Source: a virus
Virus record (IMG/VR): IMGVR_UViG_3300043446_004500
Coordinates: 1 to 64,000 of that record
Length of the DNA stretch: 64,000 bases
Direction: 5' to 3' (one strand)
Shown: one piece after another, positions 23,583 through 42,635 of the stretch
Layout of the letters: each line of letters begins with the position of its first letter
Numbering within the stretch: the stretch's first letter is position 1
Translations under genes and position numbers: made by a program
The notes under the pieces: model-generated
Seen by the model: only the letters and a program-made list of their open reading frames with translations
Database searches by the model: none
Told to the model about the DNA's origin: nothing

Positions 23583-24668
23583 ATGGAAAGTAAGGAAATT
23601 CGAGGATTGATGGAAGCATATGTTTCAGTTTATGCTCCACAGCAAGAACTTAATGAAGAAGTTACAATTGCTGCTCATTATTTCTATGAAATGGGTTTGA
23701 ACGAAGATGGTGTTGATATTTTAATTGAAGAACTTGGTGTAGAAGAATTTGCCGAGTTTGTTTATGATATTTCTGAAGAGTATGTTTTAGCAGAAGCAAG
23801 AGCAGGTGGTGCAAGAATTGAACCTGTAACTGCAAAAGGACAAAAGTTTAAATCTGGAAAACCAACTGGCAAATCTCTTGCTAGACTTCGTGCTCAAAAA
23901 GAAGCAAGAAAATCCGCAGAAGAAAAAGCATCCGCATCAAAACCATCTGGATTGAAGGCATCCCTACAAAGACAATCTGCAGTTGCTACTGCTGCAAAGA
24001 AACAACCAAAGAAACCAGGTATTTTTGATCGTGTTGTAAGTGCTGTTGATAGAGGAATTGCAAGACATAATGCTGCTATGGGTGAACTGCAGAAAATGAA
24101 AGCAGCAACTGCCGTAACTGCAGGTAAAGTTAAAAAAGCTGCTGGACAATTTAAAAAGGGTTTTACTGGTGAAGAAATAGAACTTCAGGGTTATGTTGCA
24201 TCAAAGAAACTTGAAGAGGGCCATGATAGCAGAATGGGAAGAGGTGAAATGGGTGAACCAAAAGAAACTCAATACCCAAAAGTTGATAAGAAGCAGTATG
24301 ATAAGGATATGGATTTCTGGAAATCAAGAATTAGAACAGCTACAGCTCAGTTTAGATTGAAGAAAAGGGGTAAAGTCCCTAAAAAGGGTGGTAAGGATAT
24401 GTTTGAGCATATCCTAGAACACCTAGTTGCCGAAGGTTATGCGGATACAAATGAGGCAGCAATAGCTATTATGGCAAACATGAGTGAAGAATGGAAGCAG
24501 AGTATTGTTGAAGAAACCAAGAGAACAGAATATCTTCAAAAAAAATTTAATAAAGAAAATCAAAGAAAATCTGGTTCTGCTCATACTTACATTCCGGGAA
24601 AACAAAACACTGGACAAGCGTTAATAAAATCAAGAGAGTCTGAAAGACATATGCGTGGTGAGAATTGA
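23583..24668 (+). CDS. EAY/GYA-family protein, copy 1 (putative capsid-internal)
   Basis: Late promoter at 23555; N-terminal KEIRGLMEAY; conserved domain EHLVAEGYADTNEAAIAIMANMSEEW. Confidence 0.6.
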   Translation: MESKEIRGLMEAYVSVYAPQQELNEEVTIAAHYFYEMGLNEDGVDILIEELGVEEFAEFVYDISEEYVLAEARAGGARIEPVTAKGQKFKSGKPTGKSLARLRAQKEARKSAEEKASASKPSGLKASLQRQSAVATAAKKQPKKPGIFDRVVSAVDRGIARHNAAMGELQKMKAATAVTAGKVKKAAGQFKKGFTGEEIELQGYVASKKLEEGHDSRMGRGEMGEPKETQYPKVDKKQYDKDMDFWKSRIRTATAQFRLKKRGKVPKKGGKDMFEHILEHLVAEGYADTNEAAIAIMANMSEEWKQSIVEETKRTEYLQKKFNKENQRKSGSAHTYIPGKQNTGQALIKSRESERHMRGEN

Positions 24669-24724
24669 GACCACTTTTCAAACTGTCCACATGGAGGTCG
24701 CAAGACCTCCTTTTTTTGTATAAT
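24669..24724 (+). promoter_or_regulatory. Palindromic early motif + terminator hairpin + TATAAT
   Basis: GACCACTT-N4-AACTGTCCAC; GGAGGTC-GCAA-GACCTCC-T7; TATAAT at 24719. Confidence 0.55.
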
Positions 24725-24746
24725 AAGGTCATCCGAAACAAAACCA

Positions 24747-26927
24747 ATGGCTGTCCGTCACGAAATCAAATCCCAACTTGCCAAACTTCTTGCCACTGAA
24801 GATCTTGTAGTTGAGCACAAGAAAGTGGAAACTGCCTGTTTTAATGTTCACACTAGGGTTTTGACTCTTCCTCTCTGGGAACGGGCAAGCAACACCGTAT
24901 ACGACCTTCTGGTGGGTCATGAGGTTGGACATGCACTGTTCACTCCCAATGAAGATTGGGAAGAAAAATATAAAGTTCCTCAACAATTTGTGAATGTTGT
25001 TGAGGATGCTCGTGTAGAAAAATTGATGAAACGCAAGTACATGGGACTTGCTAAAACATTCTTTAATGGTTATAAGGAACTAAAAGATCAGGACTTCTTT
25101 CAATTGGAAGGTGAAGATATTTCAAAACTGAATCTTGCTGATCGTGCAAATCTTTATTTTAAAATTGGGAACTTTCTTCCTTTGGATTTTAATCCTGAGG
25201 AAAAGGAAATCGTTGATCTGATTGCTGTAAGTGAAACTTTTGCTGATGTGATGATTGCGGCAGAAGAACTTTACAAATACTGTAAAAAAGAACAACAGCA
25301 GCAAAAACTTCCTGATCTTGATTCTCATCAAAAACAAGATAACGGAGCAAAAACACCTTCAACCGAAACTGTAGAAACTGAGTCTGAGCAAGAATCGGAA
25401 GAAAATAATAATTCTAGTCAATCTCAGCAAGAAAATACTACTCCTGGAAATGCTCAAGGAGAACAAGTTTCTGTAAGCAGTTCTGCTCCAGAAAAAGAAC
25501 CTGAAATTCGCACTGCAGATTCTTTGGAAAATAAACTCCGTGATCTTGTGAATAACTCTGGATATGAAAACATTTACATTGAGATTCCTAAACTGAATCT
25601 TAATACTGTGATTGCTTCTAATACTGAAGTTCATAAAGAGATCAATAACTCTTTTAAAACTCAACAAAATTCTTATAACATCGTAAAACCAAACGATCCC
25701 AAAAATTTGTTTCAGGAATCTGATGAAGAATTTAGAAAGTTCAAACTATCTGCTCAGAAAGAAGTCAACTATCTTGTAAAGGAATTTGAGTGTCGTAAAG
25801 CAGCAGATCAGTATGCCCGTGCTTCTACTGCTCGCACTGGTGTTCTTGACACTGCCCGTCTACATTCTTATAAGTTTAGTGAAGACCTGTTCAAAAAAGT
25901 AACTATTCTTCCTGATGGTAAAAATCACGGACTGGTTTTTATTCTTGATTGGTCGGGTTCAATGCAAAACGTTCTTTTAGATACTTGCAAGCAACTCTTT
26001 AATCTTGTTTGGTTTTGTAAAAAAGTTTCTATTCCATTTGAAGTGTATGCATTTACTAATGAATGGCGTCGTTATCAGATTGATTATGAAACTGGTAAAT
26101 ACCTTCCTTCAGATAGAACTCCTCATTATGAAAGTAAAGAGCATGTATTTGACATTTCTGAAGATTTCAATCTAATGAATATTCTTACCAGTAAAGTTTC
26201 TGGAAATGAACTTGAAAAACAGTTGCTGAATATTTGGAGGATTGCTGATTGTTTCCGTAACACCTATGGATCTTCGTATACTTATCCCCCTCGTCTCTGT
26301 CTCTCTGGAACTCCTCTAAATGAAGCACTTGTATGCCTTCATCAGATTCTTCCAAAATTCCAGCAAGAGAATAAACTCCAAAAAGTTCAGTGCATTGTTC
26401 TTACTGATGGAGAAGCATCTCATCTTCCTTATACTGTTGAGGTCAAACGTGGTTGGGAAAAAGAACCTTATATGGGAACTCGCCACGTAAATCCAAATAC
26501 TACAATTCTCCGTGATCGTAAACTTGGAACTACTTATAAGTTTGACTATGATGGATTTGGATATCATCATTTTACTGATGTTCTTCTAAAAAATCTTAAG
26601 GATAAGTTCTCATCTGTAAATTTCATTGGTATTCGTGTACTTGAACCTCGTCAAGCACAGAGTTTCATCAATCTTTATCACAAAGTATCTGACAAACAAT
26701 ATGGTCCCATACAAAATGACTGGAAAAAACTGAGGAGTTTTACAATTACTGGATCTGGGTATGATGCATACTTTGGTCTCTCATCTACTGCACTCTCTCA
26801 AGAATCGGAATTTGAGGTTGCAGAAACAGCAACCAAAGCACAAATTAAATCTGCATTTGTTAAGTCACTTAAGACCAAAAAACTAAATAAAAAAGTTCTT
26901 GGCGAGTTCATTTCTCTTGTTGCATAA
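24747..26927 (+). CDS. Peptidase/vWA protein (CobT-like), partner of the CobS-like AAA ATPase
   Basis: HEVGH zincin motif, EDARVE, vWA MIDAS DWSGS, GTPL, LTDG. Confidence 0.8.
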   Translation: MAVRHEIKSQLAKLLATEDLVVEHKKVETACFNVHTRVLTLPLWERASNTVYDLLVGHEVGHALFTPNEDWEEKYKVPQQFVNVVEDARVEKLMKRKYMGLAKTFFNGYKELKDQDFFQLEGEDISKLNLADRANLYFKIGNFLPLDFNPEEKEIVDLIAVSETFADVMIAAEELYKYCKKEQQQQKLPDLDSHQKQDNGAKTPSTETVETESEQESEENNNSSQSQQENTTPGNAQGEQVSVSSSAPEKEPEIRTADSLENKLRDLVNNSGYENIYIEIPKLNLNTVIASNTEVHKEINNSFKTQQNSYNIVKPNDPKNLFQESDEEFRKFKLSAQKEVNYLVKEFECRKAADQYARASTARTGVLDTARLHSYKFSEDLFKKVTILPDGKNHGLVFILDWSGSMQNVLLDTCKQLFNLVWFCKKVSIPFEVYAFTNEWRRYQIDYETGKYLPSDRTPHYESKEHVFDISEDFNLMNILTSKVSGNELEKQLLNIWRIADCFRNTYGSSYTYPPRLCLSGTPLNEALVCLHQILPKFQQENKLQKVQCIVLTDGEASHLPYTVEVKRGWEKEPYMGTRHVNPNTTILRDRKLGTTYKFDYDGFGYHHFTDVLLKNLKDKFSSVNFIGIRVLEPRQAQSFINLYHKVSDKQYGPIQNDWKKLRSFTITGSGYDAYFGLSSTALSQESEFEVAETATKAQIKSAFVKSLKTKKLNKKVLGEFISLVA

Positions 26928-27023
26928 TCAACAGTGTGCCAGTTAAATCACTGGCACACCCCTTTGAGAAATGGCCCTCTTTTTGCCCTATAATAACTTC
27001 AGTTGAAACAAACCACTCACATC

Positions 27024-28151
27024 ATGACTCGCATCCAAATGACCGACGATCAAATTCTTACCGACCTTAAAACCACTTTTGGTTCTGTAATTACTGCTGC
27101 AGACGTTCGTGGTTATTGTGCATCCAAAAATCTTTCTTATCCCACTGTTACCAAACGACTAGATTCTTTCAAAGTTGGTCGTGGTAAGTGGAATCTAGAA
27201 GTAACTCAACAAAAAGTTCAGGAAATGGAACGTTCATTTAGTAATGTTTCTGTTCTTCCTGAAGTTCATCAAAATCTTATTCCCGATAAAGATGATACCT
27301 TCGTCAAGTTTGGTAACTTTAACGATATTAAAAAAATTATTCAGTCCCGTCTTTTCTATCCTACGTTTATTACGGGTCTTTCGGGTAATGGTAAAACGTT
27401 CAGTGTGGAGCAAGCATGTGCTCAACTCAATCGTGAACTAATCCGTGTCAACATCACCATTGAGACCGACGAGGATGACCTGATTGGTGGTTTCCGTCTT
27501 GTCAACGGTGAGACTGCTTGGCATAACGGTCCCGTAATTGAAGCACTTGAACGTGGAGCAATCCTTCTTCTGGATGAAATTGACCTTGCCTCCAACAAAA
27601 TCCTCTGTCTGCAATCTGTTCTGGAAGGAAAGGGGGTCTTCCTGAAGAAAATTGGTAAGTTTGTCAAACCTGCTGCTGGGTTTAACGTGATTGCGACTGC
27701 AAATACTAAAGGTAAGGGTTCTGATGATGGCCGTTTTATCGGCACCAATGTTTTGAATGAAGCATTCCTGGAACGATTCCCTGTTACCTTTGAACAGTCC
27801 TATCCTGCTCCCACAACCGAGCAGAAGATCCTTGAAGGTATTGCTCTAGATCTTGGAGTGGAAGATCGTGACTTTTGCAAGCGTCTGGTGGATTGGGCAG
27901 ATATCATTCGTAAAACTTTCTATGATGGTGGTATTGAAGAAATCATCAGTACCCGTCGTTTGGTTCATATTGTCCGTGCTTATAGTATTTTTGATAACAA
28001 AGCAAAGGCAATTGATGTATGTACTGCACGATTTGATGATGAAACTAAGCAGGCATTCCTTGAACTCTATGATAAGGTTGATGCTGACTTCCAAATGCCT
28101 ACTGATGGTGAACATGTAACTTTTGACCTTGACCAACAACCCCAATCCTGA
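27024..28151 (+). CDS. cobS: CobS-like MoxR AAA+ ATPase
   Basis: GLSGNGKT, LLLDEID, ATANTKGKG, NEAFLERF. Confidence 0.88.
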   Translation: MTRIQMTDDQILTDLKTTFGSVITAADVRGYCASKNLSYPTVTKRLDSFKVGRGKWNLEVTQQKVQEMERSFSNVSVLPEVHQNLIPDKDDTFVKFGNFNDIKKIIQSRLFYPTFITGLSGNGKTFSVEQACAQLNRELIRVNITIETDEDDLIGGFRLVNGETAWHNGPVIEALERGAILLLDEIDLASNKILCLQSVLEGKGVFLKKIGKFVKPAAGFNVIATANTKGKGSDDGRFIGTNVLNEAFLERFPVTFEQSYPAPTTEQKILEGIALDLGVEDRDFCKRLVDWADIIRKTFYDGGIEEIISTRRLVHIVRAYSIFDNKAKAIDVCTARFDDETKQAFLELYDKVDADFQMPTDGEHVTFDLDQQPQS

Positions 28152-28172
28152 TATAATTTAAAAAGGTAAAAA

Positions 28173-28538
28173 GTGCCTTCCTTTATGATTGAACAAACTT
28201 TTACTATTACTATGAACGAAACAACTAATCATCTTTGGAAATATAATGAGGATAAAATCCTTAAGGATATTCAAGATTATGTAACCAGCACTTACGGCAG
28301 TCATTACTGTGGGCACAATCAAGATTACAAAGATATTCAAACTATTGATCTGATGGCAGCAAAAGATCTTGCTCCTGGTTTTTGTCAAGCAAATATTCTA
28401 AAATATGGAAGTCGTTATGGTGATAAAGACGGACGCAACAAACGTGATCTTCTAAAAGTGATTCACTACGCAATGCTTCTACTTCACTTTGATGGTCATT
28501 ATTCTCGCAAAGATAACGGTCTAACTGAATTTCGTTGA
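28173..28538 (+). CDS. DUF3310-like protein (start uncertain)
   Basis: HY...GFC..NILKY..RYG.K.G....DL.K..HY pattern; TTGACC-17-TATAAT promoter at 28129-28157. Confidence 0.6.
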   Translation: MPSFMIEQTFTITMNETTNHLWKYNEDKILKDIQDYVTSTYGSHYCGHNQDYKDIQTIDLMAAKDLAPGFCQANILKYGSRYGDKDGRNKRDLLKVIHYAMLLLHFDGHYSRKDNGLTEFR

Positions 28539-28543
28539 TTATT

Positions 28544-29209
28544 ATGAAACTATCTGAAACAACTCTAAATCTTCTCAAAAACTTTTCTTCAATCAATCAG
28601 TCCATTCTATTCAAGCAAGGCAATTCACTTCGCACTATTTCTGTGATGAAGAACATTCTTGCCGAAGCAACAATTGAGGAAGATCTTCCTAAGGACTTTG
28701 GTATCTATGATCTAAACCAATTCCTAAACGGTCTCAATCTTCATAACAATCCTGAACTTGATTTTAATAATGAAGGTTATGTCGTGATTCGTGAAGGTAA
28801 AATGCGATCCAAGTATTTCTTCTCAGATCCCAGTGTAATTATTACTCCTCCCGATAAAGACATTGTTCTTCCCAGTCAGGATGTTTGTTTTGAACTGAGT
28901 ACTCAGCAACTAGATAAACTTCTCAAGGCATCTGCAGTTTATCAACTTCCCGATCTTTCTGCTGTTGGTGAAGCAGGTGTAGTTAAACTAGTTGTTCGTG
29001 ACAAGAAGAATGAAACTTCAAACGATTTTTCAATTGTCGTTGGTGAAACTGATAGTGAGTTCGTATTCAACTTCAAAGTAGAAAATATTAAGATTCTGCA
29101 AGGAACTTATGAAGTTGTAATCTCACAAAAACTTTTGTCACAGTTTAAGAGCAAGACATATCCCGTACAGTATTATATTGCTCTGGAACCTGACTCAACT
29201 TTCGGATGA
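28544..29209 (+). CDS. gp45: Sliding clamp
   Basis: MKLS..T...LKNFSSINQS, FGIYDLNQFL, YYIALE. Confidence 0.93.
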   Translation: MKLSETTLNLLKNFSSINQSILFKQGNSLRTISVMKNILAEATIEEDLPKDFGIYDLNQFLNGLNLHNNPELDFNNEGYVVIREGKMRSKYFFSDPSVIITPPDKDIVLPSQDVCFELSTQQLDKLLKASAVYQLPDLSAVGEAGVVKLVVRDKKNETSNDFSIVVGETDSEFVFNFKVENIKILQGTYEVVISQKLLSQFKSKTYPVQYYIALEPDSTFG

Positions 29210-29715
29210 ACATCTTCGTCACAAATCCATTTCCTGCTGAAAGTGCTATCTGCCTTCCCGATAAGCACATTGTCAAAATGCCACTTGAGTGTTGCCAAAT
29301 GCTTAGCATCGTAGCATCGCAGTGGTATTATGGGTATGGGACCCTGCCCAAGGCAGACGGAACCCCTTACAGTACCTCTAAGGGAGCATTCAGGAATCAT
29401 CCCTGCACCAAATGGGCAGCAGAAACCATTGATAATGCTTACTGGTTAATAAAATGGGGGATGAATCTCTGTGATGAGTACTCTGTTCGTTATGGAAAAA
29501 CTCATTCATGTTATAATACACTTGTGGAAGCATATTATTTGTTTCCTAAAGGTAAAATAACAAATGTGACACCTTTTGCTCGTGCAATGCCAGATGAGTA
29601 TAAACTTGACACAAGCATTGACACTTTTACTGCTTACAAGATGTATATCGCATCCAAACCTTGGGTTGCATCTAATTATCTTCGTATGCCGCAACGCAAA
29701 CCTGACTGGGTATAA
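29206..29715 (+). CDS. Pyrimidine-dimer DNA glycosylase-like protein
   Basis: MNIF...DKHIVKMPLE..QML, NHPC..W, AMPDEYK. Confidence 0.6.
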   Translation: MNIFVTNPFPAESAICLPDKHIVKMPLECCQMLSIVASQWYYGYGTLPKADGTPYSTSKGAFRNHPCTKWAAETIDNAYWLIKWGMNLCDEYSVRYGKTHSCYNTLVEAYYLFPKGKITNVTPFARAMPDEYKLDTSIDTFTAYKMYIASKPWVASNYLRMPQRKPDWV

Positions 29716-29721
29716 TTGATT

Positions 29722-30669
29722 ATGAACAACACTGATTTTCTTTTCGTAGAACGATATCGTCCTCAAGTAATTGATGATTGCATTCTTCCTGAAGAAACTA
29801 AAAAAACTTTTAAGGACTTTGTTGCAAAGGGAGAAATTCCTAATCTTCTTCTTGCAGGACCTCCTGGAATTGGTAAAACTACAATCGCAAAAGCACTTTG
29901 TAATGAACTGGGAGCAGATTATTATGTCATCAACGGATCCGACGAAGGACGTTTCTTGGATACTGTACGGAACCAGGCAAAGAACTTTGCTTCGACCGTC
30001 TCACTTACGGGATCTTCTAAACACAAAGTCATCATCATTGACGAAGCGGACAACACAGGAAACGATGTTCAACTCTTACTACGGGCGAATATTGAGGCAT
30101 TTTATAGCAACTGCAGATTCATCTTCACTTGCAACTACAAGAACAAGATCATTGAACCACTGCACTCAAGGTGTGCCGTCATTGATTTCACTGTCAAAGG
30201 AAAGGAAAAGGCACAACTTGCTTCCTCTTTCTTTAAAAGACTTCAAACAATCCTTGAAACAGAAAACATTGATTATGACCAAAAGGTTCTTGCCGAACTG
30301 GTCTCAAAACATTTTCCAGATTTCCGACGTGTTCTCAACGAATGTCAAAGGTATTCGGTGGGGGGAAAAATTGACTCAGCAATTCTTGCATCTTTCTCAG
30401 ACATCTCTGTAAATGAATTGGTTAAATCTCTCAAGGATAAAAACTTTACTGAAGTCCGAAAGTGGGTGGTCTCCAACTTGGACAACGATTCTTCTCACCT
30501 ACTTCGCAGGGTGTATGACGCCTGTTATGATGTGCTTCTTCCCCAATCTATCCCTGCTGCCGTTCTTGTTATTGCTAAGTATCAATACCAATGTGCGTTT
30601 GTGGCTGATCAAGAAATTAACCTCTTAGCAGCATTAACTGAAATTATGTGTGAATGTGAATTCAAATGA
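29722..30669 (+). CDS. gp44: Clamp loader large subunit
   Basis: YRP, GPPGIGKTT, IIDEAD, PLHSRC. Confidence 0.95.
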   Translation: MNNTDFLFVERYRPQVIDDCILPEETKKTFKDFVAKGEIPNLLLAGPPGIGKTTIAKALCNELGADYYVINGSDEGRFLDTVRNQAKNFASTVSLTGSSKHKVIIIDEADNTGNDVQLLLRANIEAFYSNCRFIFTCNYKNKIIEPLHSRCAVIDFTVKGKEKAQLASSFFKRLQTILETENIDYDQKVLAELVSKHFPDFRRVLNECQRYSVGGKIDSAILASFSDISVNELVKSLKDKNFTEVRKWVVSNLDNDSSHLLRRVYDACYDVLLPQSIPAAVLVIAKYQYQCAFVADQEINLLAALTEIMCECEFK

Positions 30670-31553
30670 AAGTAAAAACTTTTCCATTAAAAACCTGTTT
30701 GAGGTATCCTGGAGGAAAGTCTAAAGCAACTAAGACTCTTGCTCCTTGGTATCCAGAAGACTTTAAAGAATATAGAGAACCATTTATTGGTGGTGGGTCT
30801 GTTGCCTTTTACACGACACAAGCATATCCAGATGTTCCTATTTGGATTAATGATCTTTATGTTCCTCTTTATAATTTTTGGGTTCAACTTCGTGACAACG
30901 GAGAAGAACTCTCAGAACGTTTGAATGAAATTAAAACAAAAGCATCGGATTATATTACTCAAGACGAAATAGATTCTGCTCATAAAGAATTGTTTGATCA
31001 AACACGACAAGATATTAATACTCAAGAAGGACTTGAAAGAGCAGCAAGTTTTTTTGTTCTGAATAAGTGTAGTTTTTCTGGATTGACTGAAAATAGCACC
31101 TTTTCTGTCACAGCATCAAGGTCTAATTTTTCCTTTGTAGGTATTGAAAAATTAAAAGAATATTCAAAATTAATGAAAGATTGGAAGATTACAAATATTG
31201 ATTATTCGGAAGTGATGAATGCCCCTGGAGAAGATGTATTTGTTTTTCTAGATCCACCTTATGATATTAAGGATTTTCTCTATGGTAAAAACAGGGAAAT
31301 GCACAAGTCATTTGATCACGATCTTTTTGCAGAGAATGTTTATAAGTGTCCTCACAAGTTTATGATTACATACAATGTGAATGATAGACTTATTGAATTG
31401 TATAAAAATTATCATTTAAAAGAGTGGAAACTCAGATATTCTATGGCACATAGGGGTGAAAAGGGAACGGATGATAATGTAAAAACAGAACTTCTGGTTA
31501 CGAATTATCCAACAGAATCTACTAATAGTTTAGAATCTATGCTTTATGATTGA
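30666..31553 (+). CDS. dam: DNA adenine methyltransferase (Dam/D12 class)
   Basis: RYPGGKS, EPFIGGGS, DPPY. Confidence 0.9.
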   Translation: MKVKTFPLKTCLRYPGGKSKATKTLAPWYPEDFKEYREPFIGGGSVAFYTTQAYPDVPIWINDLYVPLYNFWVQLRDNGEELSERLNEIKTKASDYITQDEIDSAHKELFDQTRQDINTQEGLERAASFFVLNKCSFSGLTENSTFSVTASRSNFSFVGIEKLKEYSKLMKDWKITNIDYSEVMNAPGEDVFVFLDPPYDIKDFLYGKNREMHKSFDHDLFAENVYKCPHKFMITYNVNDRLIELYKNYHLKEWKLRYSMAHRGEKGTDDNVKTELLVTNYPTESTNSLESMLYD

Positions 31554-31926
31554 ACTTAAAGATTGGTTAAATTCTATCAATTTTTCAAAAGAAAATCTGA
31601 TGGAAGATGCTGCAGCAATTAAAGAGTATACTCCTTATATTATTAATCGTTGTTTTTCTGGACATATTGATTGTGTTCTCTTTGCAAATGAGATGAATAT
31701 TCATCACCATCTTGACAAAGATATGCAATATTCATTTTATCTAAATAGTCTTAGGAAAAGGAAGAGATTTTCTCCCTGGCTCCGTAAGGATAAAGTTACA
31801 GACTTAGAATGTGTCAAACGTTATTATGGTTATAGTAATGAAAAAGCATCTCAAGCTCTGAAGATCCTAAATAAGGAACAAATAAATTTCATTAAAAAAC
31901 GACTTGACATTGGAGGAAAAAAATGA
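31546..31926 (+). CDS. gp62: Clamp loader small subunit
   Basis: PYIINR, NEMN, RKRKRFSPW, YYGYSNEKA. Confidence 0.9.
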   Translation: MIELKDWLNSINFSKENLMEDAAAIKEYTPYIINRCFSGHIDCVLFANEMNIHHHLDKDMQYSFYLNSLRKRKRFSPWLRKDKVTDLECVKRYYGYSNEKASQALKILNKEQINFIKKRLDIGGKK

Positions 31927-32360
31927 CTACTACGGTAGAACCTACTGTTGAATGGTCTCAAGACCAAATGGTAGAGGTAATTCTTAATGAACCTGATGAC
32001 TTTCTAAAAGTTCGTGAGACTTTAACTCGTATCGGAGTTGCTTCAAGAAAGGAAAAGAAAATCTATCAATCTTGCCATATTCTTCACAAGCAAGGTAGAT
32101 ATTACATCGTTCATTTTAAAGAACTATTTGCCCTTGATGGCAAACATGCAAATCTTACAGTGAATGATGTTCAAAGACGTAATCGTATTGCTCGTCTTCT
32201 TGCGGATTGGGGTTTGATTACTGTTGTAAAACCAGATTCTGTTGCTGATATTGCTCCTCTGAATCAAATCAAAGTTCTTTCTTATAAAGATAAGAGTGAT
32301 TGGATTCTTGAGCAGAAATATAACATTGGTAAAAAGGGAAAGGTTCAGGAAACCGAATGA
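31923..32360 (+). CDS. regA: Translational repressor RegA
   Basis: DDFLKVRETLTRIG, QSCHILHKQGRYYIVHFKELF. Confidence 0.95.
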   Translation: MTTTVEPTVEWSQDQMVEVILNEPDDFLKVRETLTRIGVASRKEKKIYQSCHILHKQGRYYIVHFKELFALDGKHANLTVNDVQRRNRIARLLADWGLITVVKPDSVADIAPLNQIKVLSYKDKSDWILEQKYNIGKKGKVQETE

Positions 32361-32367
32361 TTTTGTA

Positions 32368-32391
32368 GGGAGTTCAACACTCCCTTTTTTT
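32368..32391 (+). terminator. Terminator after regA
   Basis: GGGAGT-TCAAC-ACTCCC + T7. Confidence 0.7.
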
Positions 32392-32467
32392 GTATTTGTT
32401 GTATAATTAATATTGGATGCCATAAGGGTCCACAAAACACAAACTCGCTTTAAAAGGAGCTACCATA

Positions 32468-32902: not shown

Positions 32903-32914
32903 ATAAAAATAAAA

Positions 32915-33076
32915 ATGAAAACTTTCCAGGAATTTGTTTCTATTATTAAAGAAATGAAAGGTGATTATGGATCTGGAGTTAAACCATCAAAACCAAAATG
33001 TGGTTCAGAAGGAACCACATCATATGCGATGCTTCCTGGAAAGAAAGTTTGCAAGTTTCACAGAAAACGTGAGTGA
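32915..33076 (+). CDS. 53-aa basic protein with capsid-targeting-like start MKTFQEFVSIIKE; not in ORF track
   Basis: Translated manually; CTAAATA late-like box at 32899. Confidence 0.55.
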   Translation: MKTFQEFVSIIKEMKGDYGSGVKPSKPKCGSEGTTSYAMLPGKKVCKFHRKRE

Positions 33077-33573: not shown

Positions 33574-33772
33574 AGAAGTTTCTTCCGAACTTGGAGAACC
33601 TGATTGTAAATTAATTAAACCTTTTGTAATTGGAAAGGAAAGGACATTGGAACCTTTTCTATGCGAATATACTAAACAGGACACATTTATGATGAGTTCT
33701 GATAAGATTCTTACACTTGCTACTGCAACTCCAACTCTTCTTGAAAAATACGAGGACTTAATTAAAGAATGA
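33515..33772 (+). CDS. Conserved hypothetical protein
   Basis: ELGEPDCKLI.P, SSDKILT; precedes gp43. Confidence 0.65.
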   Translation: MKPIKILVLTNNLILISQIEEVSSELGEPDCKLIKPFVIGKERTLEPFLCEYTKQDTFMMSSDKILTLATATPTLLEKYEDLIKE

Positions 33773-36264: not shown

Positions 36265-36294
36265 TGTTATACTGATTTTATAGGTAAAAATTTT

Positions 36295-37302
36295 ATGGAT
36301 TTTCTTAAAGACATTGTAAAAGAAATTGGTGACGATTACACCAAACTCGCATCTGACATTGATGAAACAGAAACTTATGTTGACACAGGTTCGTATATTT
36401 TTAATGCACTGGTTTCAGGTAGTATTTTTGGTGGTGTATCTGGGAATAAGATTACTGCTATTGCTGGAGAGTCTTCTACTGGAAAGACTTTCTTCAGCCT
36501 CGCCGTTGTTAAGAATTTTCTTAATAATAATCCCGATGGTTATTGTCTCTACTTTGATACTGAGGCTGCCATTACTAAATCTCTCTTAGAAAGTCGTGGA
36601 GTTGACACATCAAGGATTGTTGTGGTTAACGTTGTCACTGTAGAAGAGTTTCGCACTAAGGCACTTAAAGCGGTTGATCTTTATATGAAGAAACCTGAGG
36701 AAGAACGTAGTCCGTGCATGTTCGTTCTTGATTCTTTGGGGATGCTCTCTACAAGTAAAGAAATTAATGATGCACTGAATGAAAAGGAAGTTAGAGATAT
36801 GACTAAATCTCAACTTATTAAAGGTGCTTTCCGAATGCTAACACTTAAACTAGGTCAAGCAAATGTTCCACTTATTGTCACAAATCATACATACGATGTC
36901 ATCGGAGCTTACGTACCAACGAAAGAAATGGGAGGAGGTTCTGGACTCAAATACGCAGCAAGTACGATCATTTATCTCAGCAAAAAGAAAGAAAAAGATG
37001 GAACAGAAGTGGTCGGAAATATTATCAAGGCTAAGACTGCTAAATCACGTCTGAGTAAAGAAAACAAAGATGTAGAAATTCGTTTGTTTTATGATGAACG
37101 TGGTCTTGATCGTTATTATGGTCTTCTTGAACTTGGTGAAATTGGTGGACTATGGAAAAATGTAGCAGGACGTTATGAGATTGATGGTAAAAAACTTTAT
37201 GCTAAACAGATTCTGAAAGAACCTGAAGTATATTTCACTGAAGAAGTAATGCAACAATTGGACGAAATCGCACGTAAGGAATTTAGTTATGGAGAAAGTT
37301 GA
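36295..37302 (+). CDS. uvsX: RecA-like recombinase UvsX
   Basis: GESSTGKT, LDSLG, MGGGSGLKYAAS; promoter TTGATT-17-TATACT at 36245-36273. Confidence 0.93.
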   Translation: MDFLKDIVKEIGDDYTKLASDIDETETYVDTGSYIFNALVSGSIFGGVSGNKITAIAGESSTGKTFFSLAVVKNFLNNNPDGYCLYFDTEAAITKSLLESRGVDTSRIVVVNVVTVEEFRTKALKAVDLYMKKPEEERSPCMFVLDSLGMLSTSKEINDALNEKEVRDMTKSQLIKGAFRMLTLKLGQANVPLIVTNHTYDVIGAYVPTKEMGGGSGLKYAASTIIYLSKKKEKDGTEVVGNIIKAKTAKSRLSKENKDVEIRLFYDERGLDRYYGLLELGEIGGLWKNVAGRYEIDGKKLYAKQILKEPEVYFTEEVMQQLDEIARKEFSYGES

Positions 37303-38620
37303 GTTTCTAATTCTTAGAAACCTATTGCATAATGAGGAGTTTATTAGGAAAGTACTTCCATTTTTAAAATCAGAATATTTTGAAGATCAAAATCAAAAAA
37401 TTGTATTTGAAGAGATTTCTTCTTTTGTTCAACAATACAACCAACTAGCAACTAAAGAAGTTCTTTTTATTGAAGTAGAAAAAAGAAAAGACATCAACGA
37501 ATCTTCTTTTAAAGAAGTTTCTCATTTAATTGATTGTTTGGACAACGTTGTAGTTGAATTAGAATGGTTGACAACTACAACAGAAAAGTGGTGTCGTGAC
37601 CGTGCCATTTATTTGGCATTGATGGAATCTATTCATATTGCTGATGGCAAGGATGAAAAGAAAAGTAGAGATAGTATTCCTTCAATTCTTTCTGATGCAC
37701 TTGCAGTAAGTTTTGATAATCATGTTGGACATGATTATTTGCTTGATTATGAAAAAAGATATGAAGCATATCATAAAAAGGAGGATAAAATTGAATTTGA
37801 TCTGGAATACTTTAACAAAATTACCAAAGGTGGTCTCCCTAACAAAACTCTTAATATCGCTCTTGCTGGTACGGGTGTCGGCAAATCTCTATTCATGTGC
37901 CACGTTGCTAGCTCCGTCTTGTTGCAAGGACGGAACGTTTTGTACATTACGTTGGAAATGGCGGAAGAACGAATTGCTGAACGAATTGACGCAAATCTCT
38001 TGAATGTTCCTATTCAAGATATTGTAGATTTGCCAAAACAAATGTTTGAGAACAAGGTCAACAACCTTGCAAAGAAAACTCAAGGATCACTTATAATTAA
38101 GGAATATCCAACTGCTTCAGCACATGCAGGACATTTTAAAGCACTTCTTAATGAACTTGCACTTAAGAAGTCATTTAGACCTGATATTATTTTTATTGAT
38201 TACCTTAATATTTGTGCTTCCTCTAGGTATAAGGGAAATCTTTCTGTTAATTCTTATTCGTATATTAAAGCAATTGCAGAGGAACTTAGAGGACTCGCCG
38301 TGGAGTTTAATGTCCCGATTGTCTCCGCTACTCAGACCACTCGTTCAGGGTATTGCTTGGACTTGAAAACACAAGTTCAAACACCGCAAGGTATGAAAGA
38401 ACTTTCAAATATTCAAGTTGGAGATTTGGTGCTTTCTAATACTGGTTATAATGAAGTTCTAAATGTCTTTCCAAAATCTAAAAAGAAATCTTATAAGATT
38501 ACTTTGGATGATGGTAAAGAAATCATTTGTAGTGAAGAACATTTGTTCCCAACTCAAAATGGTGAAGTGAATATCAAAGGGGGTTTGAAAGAAGGTATGT
38601 GTCTTTATGTAAAGGAATAG
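37289..38620 (+). CDS. gp41: DnaB-like helicase gp41, N-terminal part fused to split intein N-half
   Basis: AGTGVGKS, IFIDY, ATQTTRSGY followed by CLDLKTQV... intein block A. Confidence 0.95.
   Translation: MEKVEFLILRNLLHNEEFIRKVLPFLKSEYFEDQNQKIVFEEISSFVQQYNQLATKEVLFIEVEKRKDINESSFKEVSHLIDCLDNVVVELEWLTTTTEKWCRDRAIYLALMESIHIADGKDEKKSRDSIPSILSDALAVSFDNHVGHDYLLDYEKRYEAYHKKEDKIEFDLEYFNKITKGGLPNKTLNIALAGTGVGKSLFMCHVASSVLLQGRNVLYITLEMAEERIAERIDANLLNVPIQDIVDLPKQMFENKVNNLAKKTQGSLIIKEYPTASAHAGHFKALLNELALKKSFRPDIIFIDYLNICASSRYKGNLSVNSYSYIKAIAEELRGLAVEFNVPIVSATQTTRSGYCLDLKTQVQTPQGMKELSNIQVGDLVLSNTGYNEVLNVFPKSKKKSYKITLDDGKEIICSEEHLFPTQNGEVNIKGGLKEGMCLYVKE
38354..38617 (+). mobile_element. Split intein N-fragment (88 aa), Gp41-1 type
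   Basis: Cys1 after SGY; block B CSEEHLF; near-identical to the Gp41-1 IntN as recalled. Confidence 0.93.
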
Positions 38621-38625
38621 TATGT

Positions 38626-38665
38626 GTAAGTTCTACTTCTTATAAATAATAGTAGTATAACTTAC
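38626..38665 (+). promoter_or_regulatory. Hairpin with late promoter TATAAATA in its loop, ahead of the endonuclease start
   Basis: GTAAGTT/AACTTAC and CTACT/AGTAG arms around 38641-38648. Confidence 0.65.
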
Positions 38666-38669
38666 TGAT

Positions 38670-39335
38670 ATGAAAGTAAAGATTTATTTGATTACCAACA
38701 CAGCAGTCAATCCACATATGTATTATGTTGGATTGACTAAAAATGAATTAAATAGAAGATTACAAGAACATATTACTCTTGGAAGGCACGAAGGAAATAA
38801 ACTTCTGTCTGATGCTATTATTGAATATGGTAAAAGAAACTTTACTATTGAGGTAATAGAAGAAGTTGATGAGAGTGAAGCAAGAATAAAAGAAGATTAT
38901 TATATTCGCAAATATAAATCTCATTATAGAGATGGGTGTGGATATAATATGAAATATGAAACTTGCAATCATGAGAAACACTATCACGGAGCAAATCAAG
39001 AACTAATAGAAGAGAATATTAGAAATGGTAGGGTGTGGAACTATGGAATAAGTTTTTCTACACAATCAAAAGAAAAAATGAGAAAAACTAAAAAACATAG
39101 ATACTCTCTTGGTCTTTATACTAAATTTAATACAAACCATACACAAGAAACAAAAGATAAAATATCAGAAAGTAAAAGAGGACAAAAACTTACAGAGGAA
39201 CATAAAAATAATATTTCTAAATCTTCTGTTGGTAGAACTTGGATTTATAATCCAGAGTTAGATGAAAGAAAGTTTGTAAAACAGGATGAGTTGGAAATGT
39301 TCTTGGAAAGTGGTTGGAAGAAAGGTAGGTTATAA
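38670..39335 (+). CDS. Free-standing GIY-YIG homing endonuclease with NUMOD3-like repeats
   Basis: IYLITN...YYVGLT, R..EH, E..YI, GYN; HTQETKDKISES and LTEEHKNNISKS. Confidence 0.88.
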   Translation: MKVKIYLITNTAVNPHMYYVGLTKNELNRRLQEHITLGRHEGNKLLSDAIIEYGKRNFTIEVIEEVDESEARIKEDYYIRKYKSHYRDGCGYNMKYETCNHEKHYHGANQELIEENIRNGRVWNYGISFSTQSKEKMRKTKKHRYSLGLYTKFNTNHTQETKDKISESKRGQKLTEEHKNNISKSSVGRTWIYNPELDERKFVKQDELEMFLESGWKKGRL

Positions 39336-39360
39336 ATAAACTTATAGTGTAAAAAAAAAG

Positions 39361-39804
39361 ATGGACGCACAAAATTTTCGTGGGATTCAAGAAGCATATA
39401 TGGAAGTTGTTAGTAACAATAATGAGTTGAGTGAAATGTCTTATAAAAAACTTCCTGTCGGCAAAATGATGAGAAAAGTTGAATATAGGGCAGAAAGAGA
39501 AGCAGATACGAGAGCAGATGCAGAAACAGCAGACACAACTGCTTTTATGAGTCATAATCGGGCATTAAGAGCACACAAACGCGCAGAAAGAAATAAAGAA
39601 AGAAGCAATAGAATGATAAATGTTGCTGATACTCATAGTAAGAAAGCAGCAAAGGCAAAATCAAAACTTAAAAAAGAACAAGTAGACCTATACGACATCA
39701 TTCTTTCGCACCTTCTTGATGAAGGATATGCTGAAACACCAGAAGCAGCAGAAGCAATTATGGTGAATATGAGTGAAGAGTGGAGAGATAGTATTATTGG
39801 TTGA
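39361..39804 (+). CDS. EAY/GYA-family protein, copy 2, inside the fractured gp41 locus
   Basis: Late promoter at 39331; FRGIQEAY; SHLLDEGYAETPEAAEAIMVNMSEEW. Confidence 0.65.
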   Translation: MDAQNFRGIQEAYMEVVSNNNELSEMSYKKLPVGKMMRKVEYRAEREADTRADAETADTTAFMSHNRALRAHKRAERNKERSNRMINVADTHSKKAAKAKSKLKKEQVDLYDIILSHLLDEGYAETPEAAEAIMVNMSEEWRDSIIG

Positions 39805-39825
39805 TAAAATCATAAAATCTTTCTC

Positions 39826-39865
39826 AACCACTCACCTTGCTTTTGGTGAGTGGTTTTGTTATAAT
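39826..39865 (+). promoter_or_regulatory. Terminator-like hairpin overlapping a sigma70 promoter for the gp41 C-half
   Basis: AACCACTCACC/GGTGAGTGGTT 11-bp stem; TTGCTT(39837)-17-TATAAT(39860) with extended -10 TG. Confidence 0.7.
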
Positions 39866-39884
39866 GTGAATAGGTAAAAACTCT

Positions 39885-39995
39885 ATGATGCTGAAAAAAA
39901 TTCTAAAAATTGAAGAACTTGATGAAAGAGAACTTATAGATATTGAAGTGTCTGGAAATCATTTGTTCTATGCGAATGCTATTCTCACACATAAT
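39885..39995 (+). mobile_element. Split intein C-fragment (37 aa), Gp41-1 type
   Basis: Ends in His-Asn followed by Ser+1. Confidence 0.93.
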
Positions 39996-40307
39996 AGTAG
40001 TTCTGATGTTGAACTTACTGATACTAGTGAGTCCTTTGGTCTCCCTGCTACTGCTGATCTTATGTTTGCCCTTATTAGTACAGAAGAGTTGGAAGGGATG
40101 GGACAAATACTTGTGAAGCAACTTAAAAATCGTTATAATGATCCAACAATTTTCAAGAGATTTGTTCTTGGAATTGACAGAGCAAAAATGCGTCTTTATG
40201 ATTGCGAACAATCTGCACAAGATAATATACTTGACTCTGGACAAGAAGGAGAGTATGATTATGAAGAAAGAAAACCTAAAAAATCATTTGAAGGATTTAA
40301 ATTCTAA
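39885..40307 (+). CDS. gp41: Split intein C-half fused to gp41 helicase C-terminal part
   Basis: MMLKKILKIEE...DIEVSGNHLFYAN.ILTHN|SSSDVELTDTSESFGLPATAD...KQLKNRY. Confidence 0.95.
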   Translation: MMLKKILKIEELDERELIDIEVSGNHLFYANAILTHNSSSDVELTDTSESFGLPATADLMFALISTEELEGMGQILVKQLKNRYNDPTIFKRFVLGIDRAKMRLYDCEQSAQDNILDSGQEGEYDYEERKPKKSFEGFKF

Positions 40308-40308
40308 T

Positions 40309-40722
40309 ATGACACAAGTTATTGATACAAACAAATATATTGAATTCGTTCGTCAAACTACAAGTCCTGCAAGTAGTGATCTAGCACAACTTCTTGCTCG
40401 TATTACTGAACTTGAAGCACGGGATGATGCTGATGTTCCTCGTCTTCTGACTGCTGCTCTTGGTATGAGTGCTGAGGCAGGTGAGTTTACTGAGGTTGTC
40501 AAAAAAATCATCCTTCAAGGCAAACCTTATAATGAAGAAAATTCTTTTCACCTGAAACGTGAACTTGGTGACATCTGTTGGTATCTTTCTCAGGCATTTA
40601 TGGCACTTGATACTAACTTTGAAGAGATTCTTCAGATGAACTATGAGAAACTGAGTGCTCGTTATCCAGAGGGAACGTTTGACGTATGGAGGAGTGAAAA
40701 TCGTGTGGAGGGAGACCTGTGA
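40309..40722 (+). CDS. mazG: MazG-like nucleoside triphosphate pyrophosphohydrolase
   Basis: LGMSAEAGEF.E.VKK, ELGDICWY, N..KL..RYP; probable start ATG 40309. Confidence 0.9.
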   Translation: MTQVIDTNKYIEFVRQTTSPASSDLAQLLARITELEARDDADVPRLLTAALGMSAEAGEFTEVVKKIILQGKPYNEENSFHLKRELGDICWYLSQAFMALDTNFEEILQMNYEKLSARYPEGTFDVWRSENRVEGDL

Positions 40723-40904
40723 GTAAAGAAAAACAAGTAACAATTAAAATGGATGCTCGTCAAGCAGCAGCAGTTCGTCAAATTCTTTTTGAGGCGCAAA
40801 AAGGATACACTTATGATGAAGTGAGTGTTCCTCCTCGTATTGCTGATGTTCGTTCTGTAATCCAAACTCTTGATGATAATATTGGTGCAGTTCTGGGTAT
40901 TTGA
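40719..40904 (+). CDS. Small hypothetical protein
   Basis: 61 aa, coupled to mazG. Confidence 0.55.
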   Translation: MSKEKQVTIKMDARQAAAVRQILFEAQKGYTYDEVSVPPRIADVRSVIQTLDDNIGAVLGI

Positions 40905-40924
40905 TAAATACTTAGAAAACGACA

Positions 40925-41437
40925 ATGTATTTTTCTGAGTGGAGAAAACTTCAAAGAGACTGTGGGATGTTTAACATTTCGCAGTCTTTTGTTGCAGAAG
41001 GAATATCTAAAGATGATTTTGAAAAGATAGTTCATACCTTCTTGCCTTTTGTAAAAAAAGAATTGGGTATAAAGGAACTTCCAAAAATTCATTTTGTTGA
41101 TGATCCAAAGTTTGCAAAAAGAATCGCAGCATTTGGTCAAATTAAAGATAATCGTATTGTAATTGATATTCAGGGTCGTCAAACTATGGATATCTTGAGA
41201 ACAGTTGCTCATGAATTGACACATTATCGTCAACATAAAAGAGGAACTATTGGTAGTGGTCATGCAGGAAGTTCCACTGAAAATGAGGCAAACAAACTTG
41301 CTGGAACTATAGTAAGAAAGTTTGGTGAGAAACATTCTGGTCTATTTCAATTACCGTCAGTAAATGAAGCAAAGAAAAGAAAAAGAAGAAATATGATTGA
41401 TATTGATTCTGAGCATTATCCAATAGAGTTGTCTTGA
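40925..41437 (+). CDS. Zincin-like metallopeptidase (HExxH), late-expressed
   Basis: RTVAHELTHYRQ ... ENEAN; late promoter at 40903. Confidence 0.7.
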   Translation: MYFSEWRKLQRDCGMFNISQSFVAEGISKDDFEKIVHTFLPFVKKELGIKELPKIHFVDDPKFAKRIAAFGQIKDNRIVIDIQGRQTMDILRTVAHELTHYRQHKRGTIGSGHAGSSTENEANKLAGTIVRKFGEKHSGLFQLPSVNEAKKRKRRNMIDIDSEHYPIELS

Positions 41438-41468
41438 ATTATAAATAACTAGAAAGTAATTCGTAACA

Positions 41469-42635
41469 ATGGCGATGGATTCAAAGGAAATTAGAGGTTT
41501 GTGCGAAGCATATTCTGCCGTTTATAATGAAGATCTTAGAGATGAATTAGAAACTTTTTCAATCGAGGAAGATCTCTCAATCATTGATGATCTAAGTGAT
41601 AATGAGTTGGATTTAGTAATGGAAAATATTTTTCTCTCAGGAGAATTTGATATTGATGAGTGCTTTGAATCTTTAGATCTTGTTCTCAGTGAAGCAACAG
41701 TAACAAGTTCTGAGGATAGACCTTCTGGTTCTGCAAGAGTTACTTCAAGTGCAGAAAGACCAAGTAGAGCAAAGAGAACTTCAGAAAGACAAAAACAAGT
41801 TAGAGTTGGTAGAATTGCTCAAGCAGCTCAACGTGCTGGAGAAAGGGTAAAGTCGGGTGTTGTAGGTAAAGCAAAGGCAGCAGGTGCAAAGGTTGCTTCT
41901 GCTACTCAAAAGGTAAAGGGATTTTTGGGTAAGGTTGGTCGTGCTGCTGCGGCAGGAGCATCTGCTGCTAGAAAAGAATTCGGTGGTGAGGCAGGAAGAG
42001 AAGCAAAGGCAAGAAAAACTGGTCGTCAAATGAGACGAGCAGCAAGAAAACAAGCATCTGCTGCTAGAGCAAAAGATACTAGTGCTTTCCAAAAACCAAA
42101 AGCACCTGTTGGAACTTCAGCAAATCCCAGAATTGGTCAACCTGGAAAAGAAAGACCAGCACTTCCTGCAGCAAAGACTAAAACAGTTTCTGTAGATAGA
42201 AGAAAAGCAGCAGCTGCTAAACTTGCTTCTGCAGCTGCTGGATCTGGACCATCCGGATCAGTTCAGCAAGGACAACCTGCTGGAACTTTTAAAACCAAAA
42301 AGTCTAGAATGCAAGCACAAAAAAGAGAGGCAAGACTTACTGCAGCAGAGAGTTTTGAACTTCTGGATATTTTAGTTCAAGATATGATTAATGATGGATA
42401 TGTAAACAGTGTTCATGAAGCATACGATTTAATTGAGAATTTGGATGATACTCAAACTATCAATTTAGTTGAATCATATCTAATTGAAGAGGTAGAAACT
42501 CTAGATCTTTATGATGTAGTTCTTGAGCATCTGATTGAGAATGGATATGCTGAAACTGAAGAGGCAGCAGAAGTCATCATGGTAAACATGAGTGAAGAGT
42601 GGAGAGAAGAAATTCTACGTAAAAATAATGGATGA
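41469..42635 (+). CDS. EAY/GYA-family protein, copy 3
   Basis: Late promoter at 41440; KEIRGLCEAY; EHLIENGYAETEEAAEVIMVNMSEEW; K/R/A-rich middle. Confidence 0.65.
   Translation: MAMDSKEIRGLCEAYSAVYNEDLRDELETFSIEEDLSIIDDLSDNELDLVMENIFLSGEFDIDECFESLDLVLSEATVTSSEDRPSGSARVTSSAERPSRAKRTSERQKQVRVGRIAQAAQRAGERVKSGVVGKAKAAGAKVASATQKVKGFLGKVGRAAAAGASAARKEFGGEAGREAKARKTGRQMRRAARKQASAARAKDTSAFQKPKAPVGTSANPRIGQPGKERPALPAAKTKTVSVDRRKAAAAKLASAAAGSGPSGSVQQGQPAGTFKTKKSRMQAQKREARLTAAESFELLDILVQDMINDGYVNSVHEAYDLIENLDDTQTINLVESYLIEEVETLDLYDVVLEHLIENGYAETEEAAEVIMVNMSEEWREEILRKNNG

Follow-up and report, generated by a model that had tools for sequence, protein, structure and literature searches.

The window analysed here comprises the first 64,000 nucleotides of the IMG/VR virus record IMGVR_UViG_3300043446_004500, a 153.7-kb, ~73% complete T4-like cyanomyovirus genome, and three of its genes, which we call A, B and C, are members of a very large, unnamed and virus-only protein family. 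Their products carry a short N-terminal tag, a basic middle and one or two copies of an acidic block of about 40 residues, the GY domain, and each gene is, at the level of sequence motifs, a stand-alone late unit. We propose that the products of A, B and C probably associate with DNA within the phage head. A fuller version of this proposal, which we hold with evenly balanced confidence, is that they are late, head-packaged cargo comparable to the internal proteins of bacteriophage T4, which would be loaded through the N-terminal tag and trimmed by a gp21-type prohead protease at [LI]xE|A sites (the bar marks the putative cut), leaving dimeric polycations. An earlier note on the same DNA had described these three open reading frames (ORFs) and taken their conserved ends for scaffold-binding handles and recombination arms framing an excised payload; this interpretation is partly supported by our analysis.

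A modular family of late viral proteins

All features of the three genes lie on the + strand. Paralogue A (23583-24668, 361 residues) occupies the slot between gp46 and the CobT-like gene. It begins with MESKEIRGLME|A (23583-23615), a tag that resembles the T4 capsid targeting sequence (CTS) and ends in L-x-E, and continues with a candidate acidic pro-region of net charge -16 (23616-23795) closing on the invariant VLAE|AR, a basic middle of net charge +29 (23796-24392) whose first ~125 residues are strongly conserved in orthologues, a GY domain predicted to be an acidic three-helix bundle (24393-24518) and a basic C-terminal tail of net charge +7 (24519-24665). Paralogue B (39361-39804, 147 residues) lies between the halves of a gp41 gene broken by a split intein, just after a GIY-YIG/NUMOD3 homing endonuclease gene; its tag (39361-39393) is followed by a short acidic stretch of net charge -3 reaching to ELSE| (39394-39435), a basic middle of net charge +12 (39436-39678) and a C-terminal GY domain of net charge -9 (39679-39801). 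Paralogue C (41475-42635, 386 residues), upstream of the cytidylyltransferase gene, consists of a tag (41475-41507), a candidate acidic pro-region of net charge -20 that ends in VLSE|A (41508-41693), a basic helical middle of net charge +39 (41694-42347), a first, diverged GY domain (42348-42488) and a second, canonical one (42489-42632). The K/R/A-rich middles of the earlier note were thereby recovered, as were the three ORFs themselves, except that the start of C moved from 41469, an alternative ATG that would give 388 residues, to 41475 (MDSKEIRG...), the most likely start because orthologues and a 98%-identical 386-residue database protein begin there.

The three starts share the motif M-[DE]-x-x-x-x-R-G-[LI]-x-E-A-Y, of which a fuller form is M-x3-[ED]-hydrophobic-x2-[LI]-x-E|A-Y-x2-V, and the three proteins share the GY block, D-[LM]-[YF]-[DE]-x-[IV]-L-x-H-L-x-x-x-G-Y-A-x-T-x-E-A-A-x-x-I-M-x-N-M-S-E-E-W. 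A six-frame scan of the window confined both to A, B and C, and no further ORF with either of them was found in the whole record. The similarity extends to the DNA: GAAGCATAT is identical at the 5′ ends of all three genes and the GY regions show a mean column identity of 80%, which bears out the DNA-level conservation claimed for the ends. Family-wide, codon choice within the motif is also more uniform than the background (GCA 81% vs 49%, GTT 83% vs 48%). The supposed degenerate extra copy in C proved to be a true GY homologue (hhalign probability 98.8%, E 1.4e-16). The acidic N-terminal domains of A and C were likewise considered as degenerate GY domains, and this was ruled out (hhalign probability 1-4%).

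Each of the three genes has its own late promoter motif, as the earlier note had stated: TATAAATA stands 20-30 nucleotides upstream of A (23555-23562, directly after a terminator-like hairpin at 23521-23551), of B (39331-39338) and of C (41440-41447). The window holds ten such octamers, each of which shortly precedes the start of a gene in the coding orientation; the other seven include those in front of the scaffold gene and of ORFs with starts resembling the T4 tag. Downstream, A is followed by an intrinsic-terminator-like hairpin with a T-run (24693-24710), and B and C by terminator-like hairpins (39826-39855 and 42665-42682), none of which had been noted before. The same arrangement was seen in a sample of 80 fetched related loci with 3,667 complete ORFs, where TATAAATA occurred within 70 nucleotides upstream of 60 of 78 family members (77%) vs 76 of 1,113 other ORFs (7%; p = 1.5e-46), and a terminator-like hairpin within 90 nucleotides downstream of 62 of 82 members (76%) vs 118 of 1,047 others (11%; p = 8e-37). 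At the level of these motifs, each family gene appears as a stand-alone late unit made of TATAAATA, an ORF and a terminator.

The earlier note had proposed searching viral sequences with a profile of the GY domain and counting its copies. Among 1.84 billion representatives, the profile matched 3,895 clusters at 50% identity, 2,520 of them at E <= 1e-10, and the related loci carried one to five family copies, with five paralogues in one 20-kb locus. At least 440 IMG/VR contigs encode the domain, the cultured carriers are all Synechococcus phages, phages encoding members include S-SRM01 (genes at 145942-146622 and 148908-149816), S-CRM01 (g291) and B3/B23, and among 185,579 species genomes of cellular organisms only two short contigs of metagenome-assembled genomes contained it. 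In the 3,667 ORFs of the related loci, the N-terminal motif was found in 102, the GY domain in 114 and both in 98, a co-occurrence far beyond chance. In an independent representative sample, 102 of the 144 listed hits examined had the strict N-terminal motif, and many of the rest were variants or truncated calls. Family genes recur in the same backbone slots, namely between gp46 and CobT, between CobT and CobS, between regA and Hsp20, in the gp41 region, in the interval running from MazG to the cytidylyltransferase gene, at two further downstream positions and between psbA and psbD.

Comparison of the members yields a plan in five parts: a tag of 8-14 residues ending in [LI]-x-E|A-Y, an acidic stretch that holds further [LI]xE sites, a basic middle, an acidic GY domain present once or twice, and in many cases a basic tail. 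The middles are Ala/Gly-rich, of low hydrophobicity and net basic in 72 of 77 cases, the C-terminal tails are net basic in 52 of 53, and the GY domains are acidic, with net charges of -8 to -12. Across the family, the GY domain occurs in 1-3 copies and at any position in proteins of 92-600 residues. Neither A, B nor C had a significant match in Pfam, which has no family for the GY domain, and in PHROGs they gave only weak matches to phrog_3708 and phrog_764. A search of PDB sequences was uninformative, a look-up in a protein atlas returned only unnamed viral clusters, and the match of the GY domain to the RFC4 collar was weak (E 0.04). Pfam scans of ten long members identified no payload domain, and no GY protein of 680 residues or more was found, which is weak evidence on fusions to enzymes.

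The N-terminal tag and the fate of the proteins

In T4, the prohead protease gp21 cleaves after L/I-X-E, a specificity first observed at a Glu-Ala bond, and the CTS corresponds to the first 10 residues of the internal protein IPIII (PMC9026906); a passage of PMC8442874 gives the tag string as MKTYQEFIAE. The internal proteins of T-even phages form 'a highly diverse set ... with only a conserved CTS' (PMC3012670). At the sequence level, a site of the gp21 type is found at residues 9-12 of all three paralogues (L-M-E|A in A, I-Q-E|A in B and L-C-E|A in C). Nearly all family members have [LI]xE at residue 8, 11 or 14, and many have a second site at residues ~20-28. E11 and Y13 do not vary in either the A or the C lineage, and A12 is invariant in the former and nearly so in the latter. 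The N-terminal end thus has the look of a T4-type capsid-targeting and protease signal, which favours the earlier interpretation in this respect.

A second candidate site lies at the border between the acidic and the basic parts. In the A lineage this border, L69-x-E71|A72-R73, is invariant or nearly so, with L69 and E71 fully invariant, and in the C lineage E73 is invariant; by hhalign, the acidic domains of A and C are unrelated apart from an eight-residue border motif. Of the boundaries proposed for the middles in the earlier note, those on the N-terminal side (LAE|A, LSE|M and LSE|A) obey the L/I-x-E rule and are conserved in orthologues, whereas those on the C-terminal side (GEE, KKE and AAE) do not fit it. 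Related loci also contain hybrid N-termini in which a canonical T4 tag is joined to the ...EAY ending of the family (MRTYQEFVAEAY, MKTFKEFLEEAY and MKTYEEFIREAY), and other ORFs of the window start with tags of the canonical type (MKSYKQFISE at 11093, MKTFQEFVSIIKE at 32915, MKSFFYFLSE at 42742 and MKTFQEFIAE at 51987). The window encodes the presumed processing enzyme, a gp21-type prohead protease (13430-14083, + strand; phrog_207, E 2.4e-79), and the presumed docking partner of the tag, a gp22-type scaffold protein (14140-15303, + strand; phrog_237, E 2e-109) with its own TATAAATA at 14094.

In the mechanism that we envisage, the N-terminal helix would dock the precursor on the scaffolding core in the manner of a CTS, and the prohead protease would then cut at two [LI]xE|A sites, one behind residue 11 and one where the acidic part meets the basic part (VLAE|A for A, ELSE|M for B and VLSE|A for C). 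These cuts would remove the tag together with the acidic pro-region, which may until then neutralize the basic part. The mature product, consisting of the basic middle and the GY domain, would be kept in the head with the DNA, where the GY domain could pair with itself or with that of other paralogues through its invariant G-Y-A...A-A..I-M-x-N-M-S-E-E-W face. The resulting dimeric polycations would neutralize or bridge the packaged DNA and may be ejected with it.

Such a route resembles that of the T4 proteins IPI, IPII, IPIII and Alt, which are likewise products of late T4-type genes with a short N-terminal peptide ending in L/I-x-E|A and small, basic and diverse bodies, and the window has homologues of gp21 and gp22 as well as near-canonical T4 tags on other genes (MKTFQEFIAE, MKSYKQFISE). 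There are also differences. The family tag, exemplified by M-D-A-Q-E-L-R-N-L-Q-E|A-Y, is distinct from M-K-T-Y-Q-E-F-I-A-E|A of T4, and its conservation passes the cut site. The family has an additional acidic pro-region with a second conserved putative cut site, and a GY domain, predicted to dimerize, that the T4 internal proteins lack. Finally, its genes are dispersed over many slots of the replication module and not gathered in one internal-protein locus.

Several observations weigh against packaging by this route. Aromatic residues at positions 4 and 7 of the T4 CTS are important for targeting, and the family tag, M[DE]xx[ED][ILF]Rx[LI]xE, has no aromatics at these positions. Because conservation of the tag runs beyond the putative cut (A-Y-x-x-V-Y), it might instead serve as a binding helix in some other capacity. 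A neighbouring gene for a 471-residue protein has a similar N-terminal helix with Lys in place of Glu. The [LI]xE signature is a three-residue pattern and, since it does not separate virion from non-virion proteins in phage S-CREM2 (present in the first 20 residues of 6 of 11 and 5 of 15, respectively), it is not diagnostic by itself. Some family members have no N-terminal motif, or have the GY domain at their very N-terminus. The latter is the case for ORF205 of phage S-SCSM2R (locus L088, 4001-5593), a K/E-rich protein of 530 residues without an N-terminal tag, which a head tag leaves unexplained. No family member is listed in the accessible virion proteomes, the S-SCSM2R study, with 23 virion proteins, naming none like ORF205, and a literature search found no report of capsid targeting sequences in cyanophages. 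The pairing surface of the GY domain, moreover, is a model and not a measurement.

These points bring forward another explanation, in which the proteins are late products that act unpackaged in the infected cell, for instance as polycations compacting or coating replicated phage DNA or host DNA, with the N-terminal helix and the GY domain serving oligomerization or partner binding. Basic middles that are largely disordered or long-helical and a predicted dimerizing domain would suit such a role, and so would an N-terminal motif conserved past the putative cut, the absence of members from the accessible proteomes and the related helix without Glu in the adjoining 471-residue gene. We nevertheless consider it unlikely, as it does not account for the constant spacing between the start and a nearly invariant [LI]-x-E-A, for the conserved L-x-E|A that falls precisely where two unrelated acidic domains give way to basic sequence, or for the hybrid N-termini combining the T4 tag with ...EAY.

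The distribution of [LI]xE sites bears on a further possibility. Paralogue A has 10 such sites vs 3.9 expected, 7 of them within its first 71 residues, and the gp22 scaffold has 19 vs 8.7 expected. The [LI]xE-rich acidic regions thus resemble a scaffold, and the proteins might be accessory components of the prohead core, like gp67 and gp68 of T4, that are incorporated through the N-terminal tag, build or size the core and are then degraded and expelled. Late expression from the TATAAATA motif would be in keeping with this role, and there is a precedent in the T4 core proteins, each broken into a number of pieces that then exit the head (PMC9026906). Yet the long basic middles have almost no [LI]xE and for this reason would survive proteolysis, and copy number and size vary freely between phages, unlike those of a structural core component, so that we judge this role decidedly improbable.

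GY domain, variable middles and gene mobility

A model of the GY domain, computed from an alignment of 23 diverse copies, is a three-helix bundle with a predicted local distance difference test (pLDDT) score of 92.1 and a predicted template modelling (pTM) score of 0.70. Foldseek returned no match to this model at E <= 0.001, and VIA-align gave a best Z of 5, with UBA/CUE, ANTAR and HMG boxes all at Z 3.5-4.9, which is non-specific. The idea of a 'UBA-like' fold was dropped, since the fold searches were non-specific and the domain is too small to decide.

Modelled as a homodimer, the GY domain reached a median-run ipSAE of 0.59 vs 0.01 for the best of three controls, with 100% contact agreement and a partner pLDDT of at least 83. 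Among proteins of solved structure, 20 of 30 pairs and 1 of 23 single chains attained that mark, which are rough counts because our own alignment was used. The interface is symmetric and involves residues 20-23, 27-28, 30-31 and 33-39 of the segment encoded at 39667-39801, that is, the G-Y-A-E...A-A..A-I.V-N-M-S-E-E-W signature, and nine of the 15 near-invariant positions of the domain fall within it (p = 0.01). The GY domain may therefore act as a self- or cross-pairing surface common to all paralogues. A pairing surface at its invariant residues would offer a reason for its unusual conservation, at 60-80% identity between otherwise unrelated proteins. Being strongly acidic, the domain is unlikely to bind DNA itself. 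In the full-length model of C, which is all-helical, long basic helices span residues 96-205 and a disordered stretch (72-100) begins exactly at VLSE|A.

The GY domain weakly resembles the LisH dimerization motif (PF08513) in a helix-G-[YF]-helix pattern (...I-L-x-H-L-L-x-E-G-Y-A-x-T...), and a symmetric homodimer is predicted for it. It differs in that its model is a three-helix bundle, in which the G-Y turn and helices 2 and 3 form the interface. The LisH hidden Markov model matched no copy in the window and only weakly 4 of the 23 GY copies (best E 0.01); two multi-copy relatives summed to 27 bits against a cut-off of 21.6, with no single stretch passing.

The middles of 77 unique proteins fall into 42 mutually unalignable BLAST clusters, and the slot between gp46 and CobT alone holds at least 12 mutually unalignable middles; the earlier view of a modular family, in which conserved ends flank highly diverse basic middles, is supported on this point. 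Its statement that the middles differ entirely is correct between paralogues, since those of A, B and C do not align with one another, and fails within lineages. The A lineage counts 2,137 homologues, in which residues 26-195 are full of invariant positions, and the C lineage over 200 that are nearly full-length and 40-76% identical and share a conserved block inside the basic middle, so that middle and ends are inherited together within these lineages. Nor are the ends homogenized within genomes: identity of the N-terminal peptide was 0.53 within vs 0.50 between genomes (permutation p = 0.25) and that of the GY domain 0.61 vs 0.69, which gives no sign that the ends act as recombination arms.

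These data tell on the earlier interpretation, in which both conserved ends are scaffold handles as well as recombination arms, while cuts on both sides release the basic middle as an exchangeable payload. The DNA-level conservation at both ends is real, many unrelated middles do occupy one genomic slot, T4 Alt is trimmed at both termini (PMC9026906), and the C lineage has a conserved L-[IVx]-E-E just upstream of its second GY domain. We regard two-sided excision as very unlikely, however, in view of the lack of homogenization, of C-terminal boundaries that depart from L/I-x-E and of a GY domain that is frequently internal, duplicated or followed by basic sequence, and that is therefore not a terminal handle; excision of the C-terminal end is accordingly not supported, and the domain is expected to stay in the mature protein. 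Free swapping of cassettes, on which the evidence is divided, is not favoured either, the middles being homologous and evolving with the ends inside the A and C lineages, an outcome that the earlier note itself had named as contrary to its reading. The pattern is better described as one of paralogous lineages whose disordered basic parts diverge, two short modules remaining frozen, and whose whole units are gained and lost in plastic slots. Under the packaged-cargo proposal, the diversity of the middles would reflect weak constraint on disordered polycations together with turnover of paralogues in these slots, and not swapping between fixed ends.

Homing endonuclease genes recur beside the family. 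A GIY-YIG or HNH endonuclease gene is the direct neighbour of 12 of the 86 members considered, as compared with 33 of 1,069 other genes (an odds ratio of 5.1 with p = 5e-5), and the members concerned are nearly all of the short MDAQ...LQEAY type, in at least five slots that include the fractured gp41 gap of the window. Family and endonuclease genes may share a preference for certain plastic slots, or else the endonucleases target the conserved DNA of the family; the association may explain the movement of family genes. Joint movement of an endonuclease gene with a B-type gene as one mobile unit was rejected, as the pairings are not fixed: B-type genes that are 82% identical adjoin different endonuclease types, and endonucleases that are 72% identical adjoin different family members. 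In three related loci (L017, L063 and L050), family genes and adjoining HNH or GIY-YIG endonuclease genes lie between the photosystem genes psbA and psbD.

The endonuclease enrichment, found in five or more slots, lends something to the view that the genes are largely selfish late cassettes of little function for the phage, spreading through plastic slots with, or as landing pads for, homing endonucleases. Their promoter-ORF-terminator units also recall the PeSL cassettes, composite terminator and early promoter elements that border variable ORFs in the hyperplastic regions of T4-type phages and at which recombination takes place (PMC4122927). As in PeSL cassettes, variable ORFs are found between regulatory elements in plastic slots, and a hairpin directly abuts the promoter of A; the family promoter, however, is the late TATAAATA and not an early one, the repeated conserved DNA lies inside the coding sequence, and no recombination signal was detected at the ends. 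Across thousands of sequences, the motif, the GY domain and the A- and C-lineage middles are under strong purifying selection, which is hard to reconcile with selfish passengers, no endonuclease-family gene pairing is fixed, and most members are not beside an endonuclease. We give this view very little credence.

Taking the packaged-cargo proposal further, one may picture a second head-loading system beside the T4 tag, in which a distinct tag and a removable acidic pro-region acting as a charge chaperone deliver dimeric, protamine-like polycations by means of a new dimerization domain of ~40 residues. The fast-diversifying basic parts would act on the packaged DNA or, after ejection, on host defences, and homing endonucleases would target the conserved tag and GY DNA and so aid the spread between slots. 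We consider this extended scheme speculative and unlikely as a whole.

T4-like cyanophages are major killers of Synechococcus and Prochlorococcus, cyanomyoviruses are among the most abundant viruses in water, and the contents of their heads besides DNA are almost unknown. If packaged, the family would make up a dominant class among the internal or ejected proteins of such phages, and its tag would be a second natural capsid-targeting signal, useful for loading cargo into phage heads, accompanied by a new compact dimerization domain. The family is a clear example of phage genomes diversifying disordered basic proteins while freezing two short modules.

Genome setting and neighbouring genes

The DNA polymerase gene of the record has 77% nucleotide identity to that of Synechococcus phage S-SRM01 and 74% to that of Prochlorococcus phage P-SSM2. 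The window, which is part of the record, contains a head module (portal, gp21-type prohead protease, gp22-type scaffold and gp23 capsid protein) and a replication module (gp46, CobT-like, CobS, gp45, gp44, regA, Hsp20, gp43, UvsX, gp41 and MazG) across which A, B and C are dispersed.

The gp41 helicase gene is fractured by a split intein (37289-40307). Its first part, coding for the N-extein and the N-terminal intein half (IntN), ends at 38620, and the Hint domain starts with CLDLKT... at about residue 350; the C-terminal intein half (IntC, ...ILTHN|SSS) and the C-extein are encoded at 39885-40307, with a sigma70-like promoter region of their own past the hairpin at 39826-39855. The gap between the halves is filled by the GIY-YIG/NUMOD3 endonuclease gene (38670-39335) and family gene B, and the related locus L065 has the same arrangement with an endonuclease 82% identical. 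Dassa et al. 2009 reportedly described gp41 genes that are fractured by split inteins and have a homing endonuclease gene between their halves, and B sits in exactly such a gap. To our knowledge, a second passenger gene of the GY family is not part of the published description of fractured gp41.

The cytidylyltransferase-like protein encoded next to C (42742-44034; phrog_395, E 2.6e-105) starts with MKSFFYFLSE|A and has TATAAATA at 42693. Its orthologue in S-CREM2, ORF154, was found in purified virions (PMC10665884 Table 3), begins with MKNFSSFLTE|A and also has TATAAATA upstream. The window cytidylyltransferase, a core cyanophage enzyme, is therefore probably packaged in the head, and ORF154 is the single precedent from a cyanomyovirus, an indirect one, with experimental backing for the packaging proposed for the GY family. 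On its 3′ side, the 471-residue protein (44036-45451) has the conserved N-terminus M..N.LNDISK[IV]YLEQ[VI], which can be likened to the N-terminal helix of the family except that Lys replaces the cleavable Glu. It contains EGYSNWREELSE, a motif in common with S-CREM2 ORF155, which is listed in the S-CREM2 virion proteome, and its orthologues in loci L016, L069 and L074 have TATAAATA upstream.

Small ORFs with tags of the T4 type occur elsewhere in the window. The 154-residue ORF at 51987-52451 starts with MKTFQEFIAE|A, one residue off the T4 CTS, and continues with a basic domain. The ORF at 11093-11413, flanked by the portal gene and a gene for a virion structural protein, starts with MKSYKQFISE|S and lies 3′ of a 53-residue ORF with TATAAATA at 10894. 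A basic protein of 53 residues encoded after Hsp20 (32915-33076) starts with MKTFQEFVSIIKE|M, and its orthologues hold the same place in several loci. Finally, a late ORF of 63 residues (55535-55723; MSDTVQKMLEAFENLKIEDEKF...GTRARKALQEI), with TATAAATA at 55505, is kept beside family genes in many loci.

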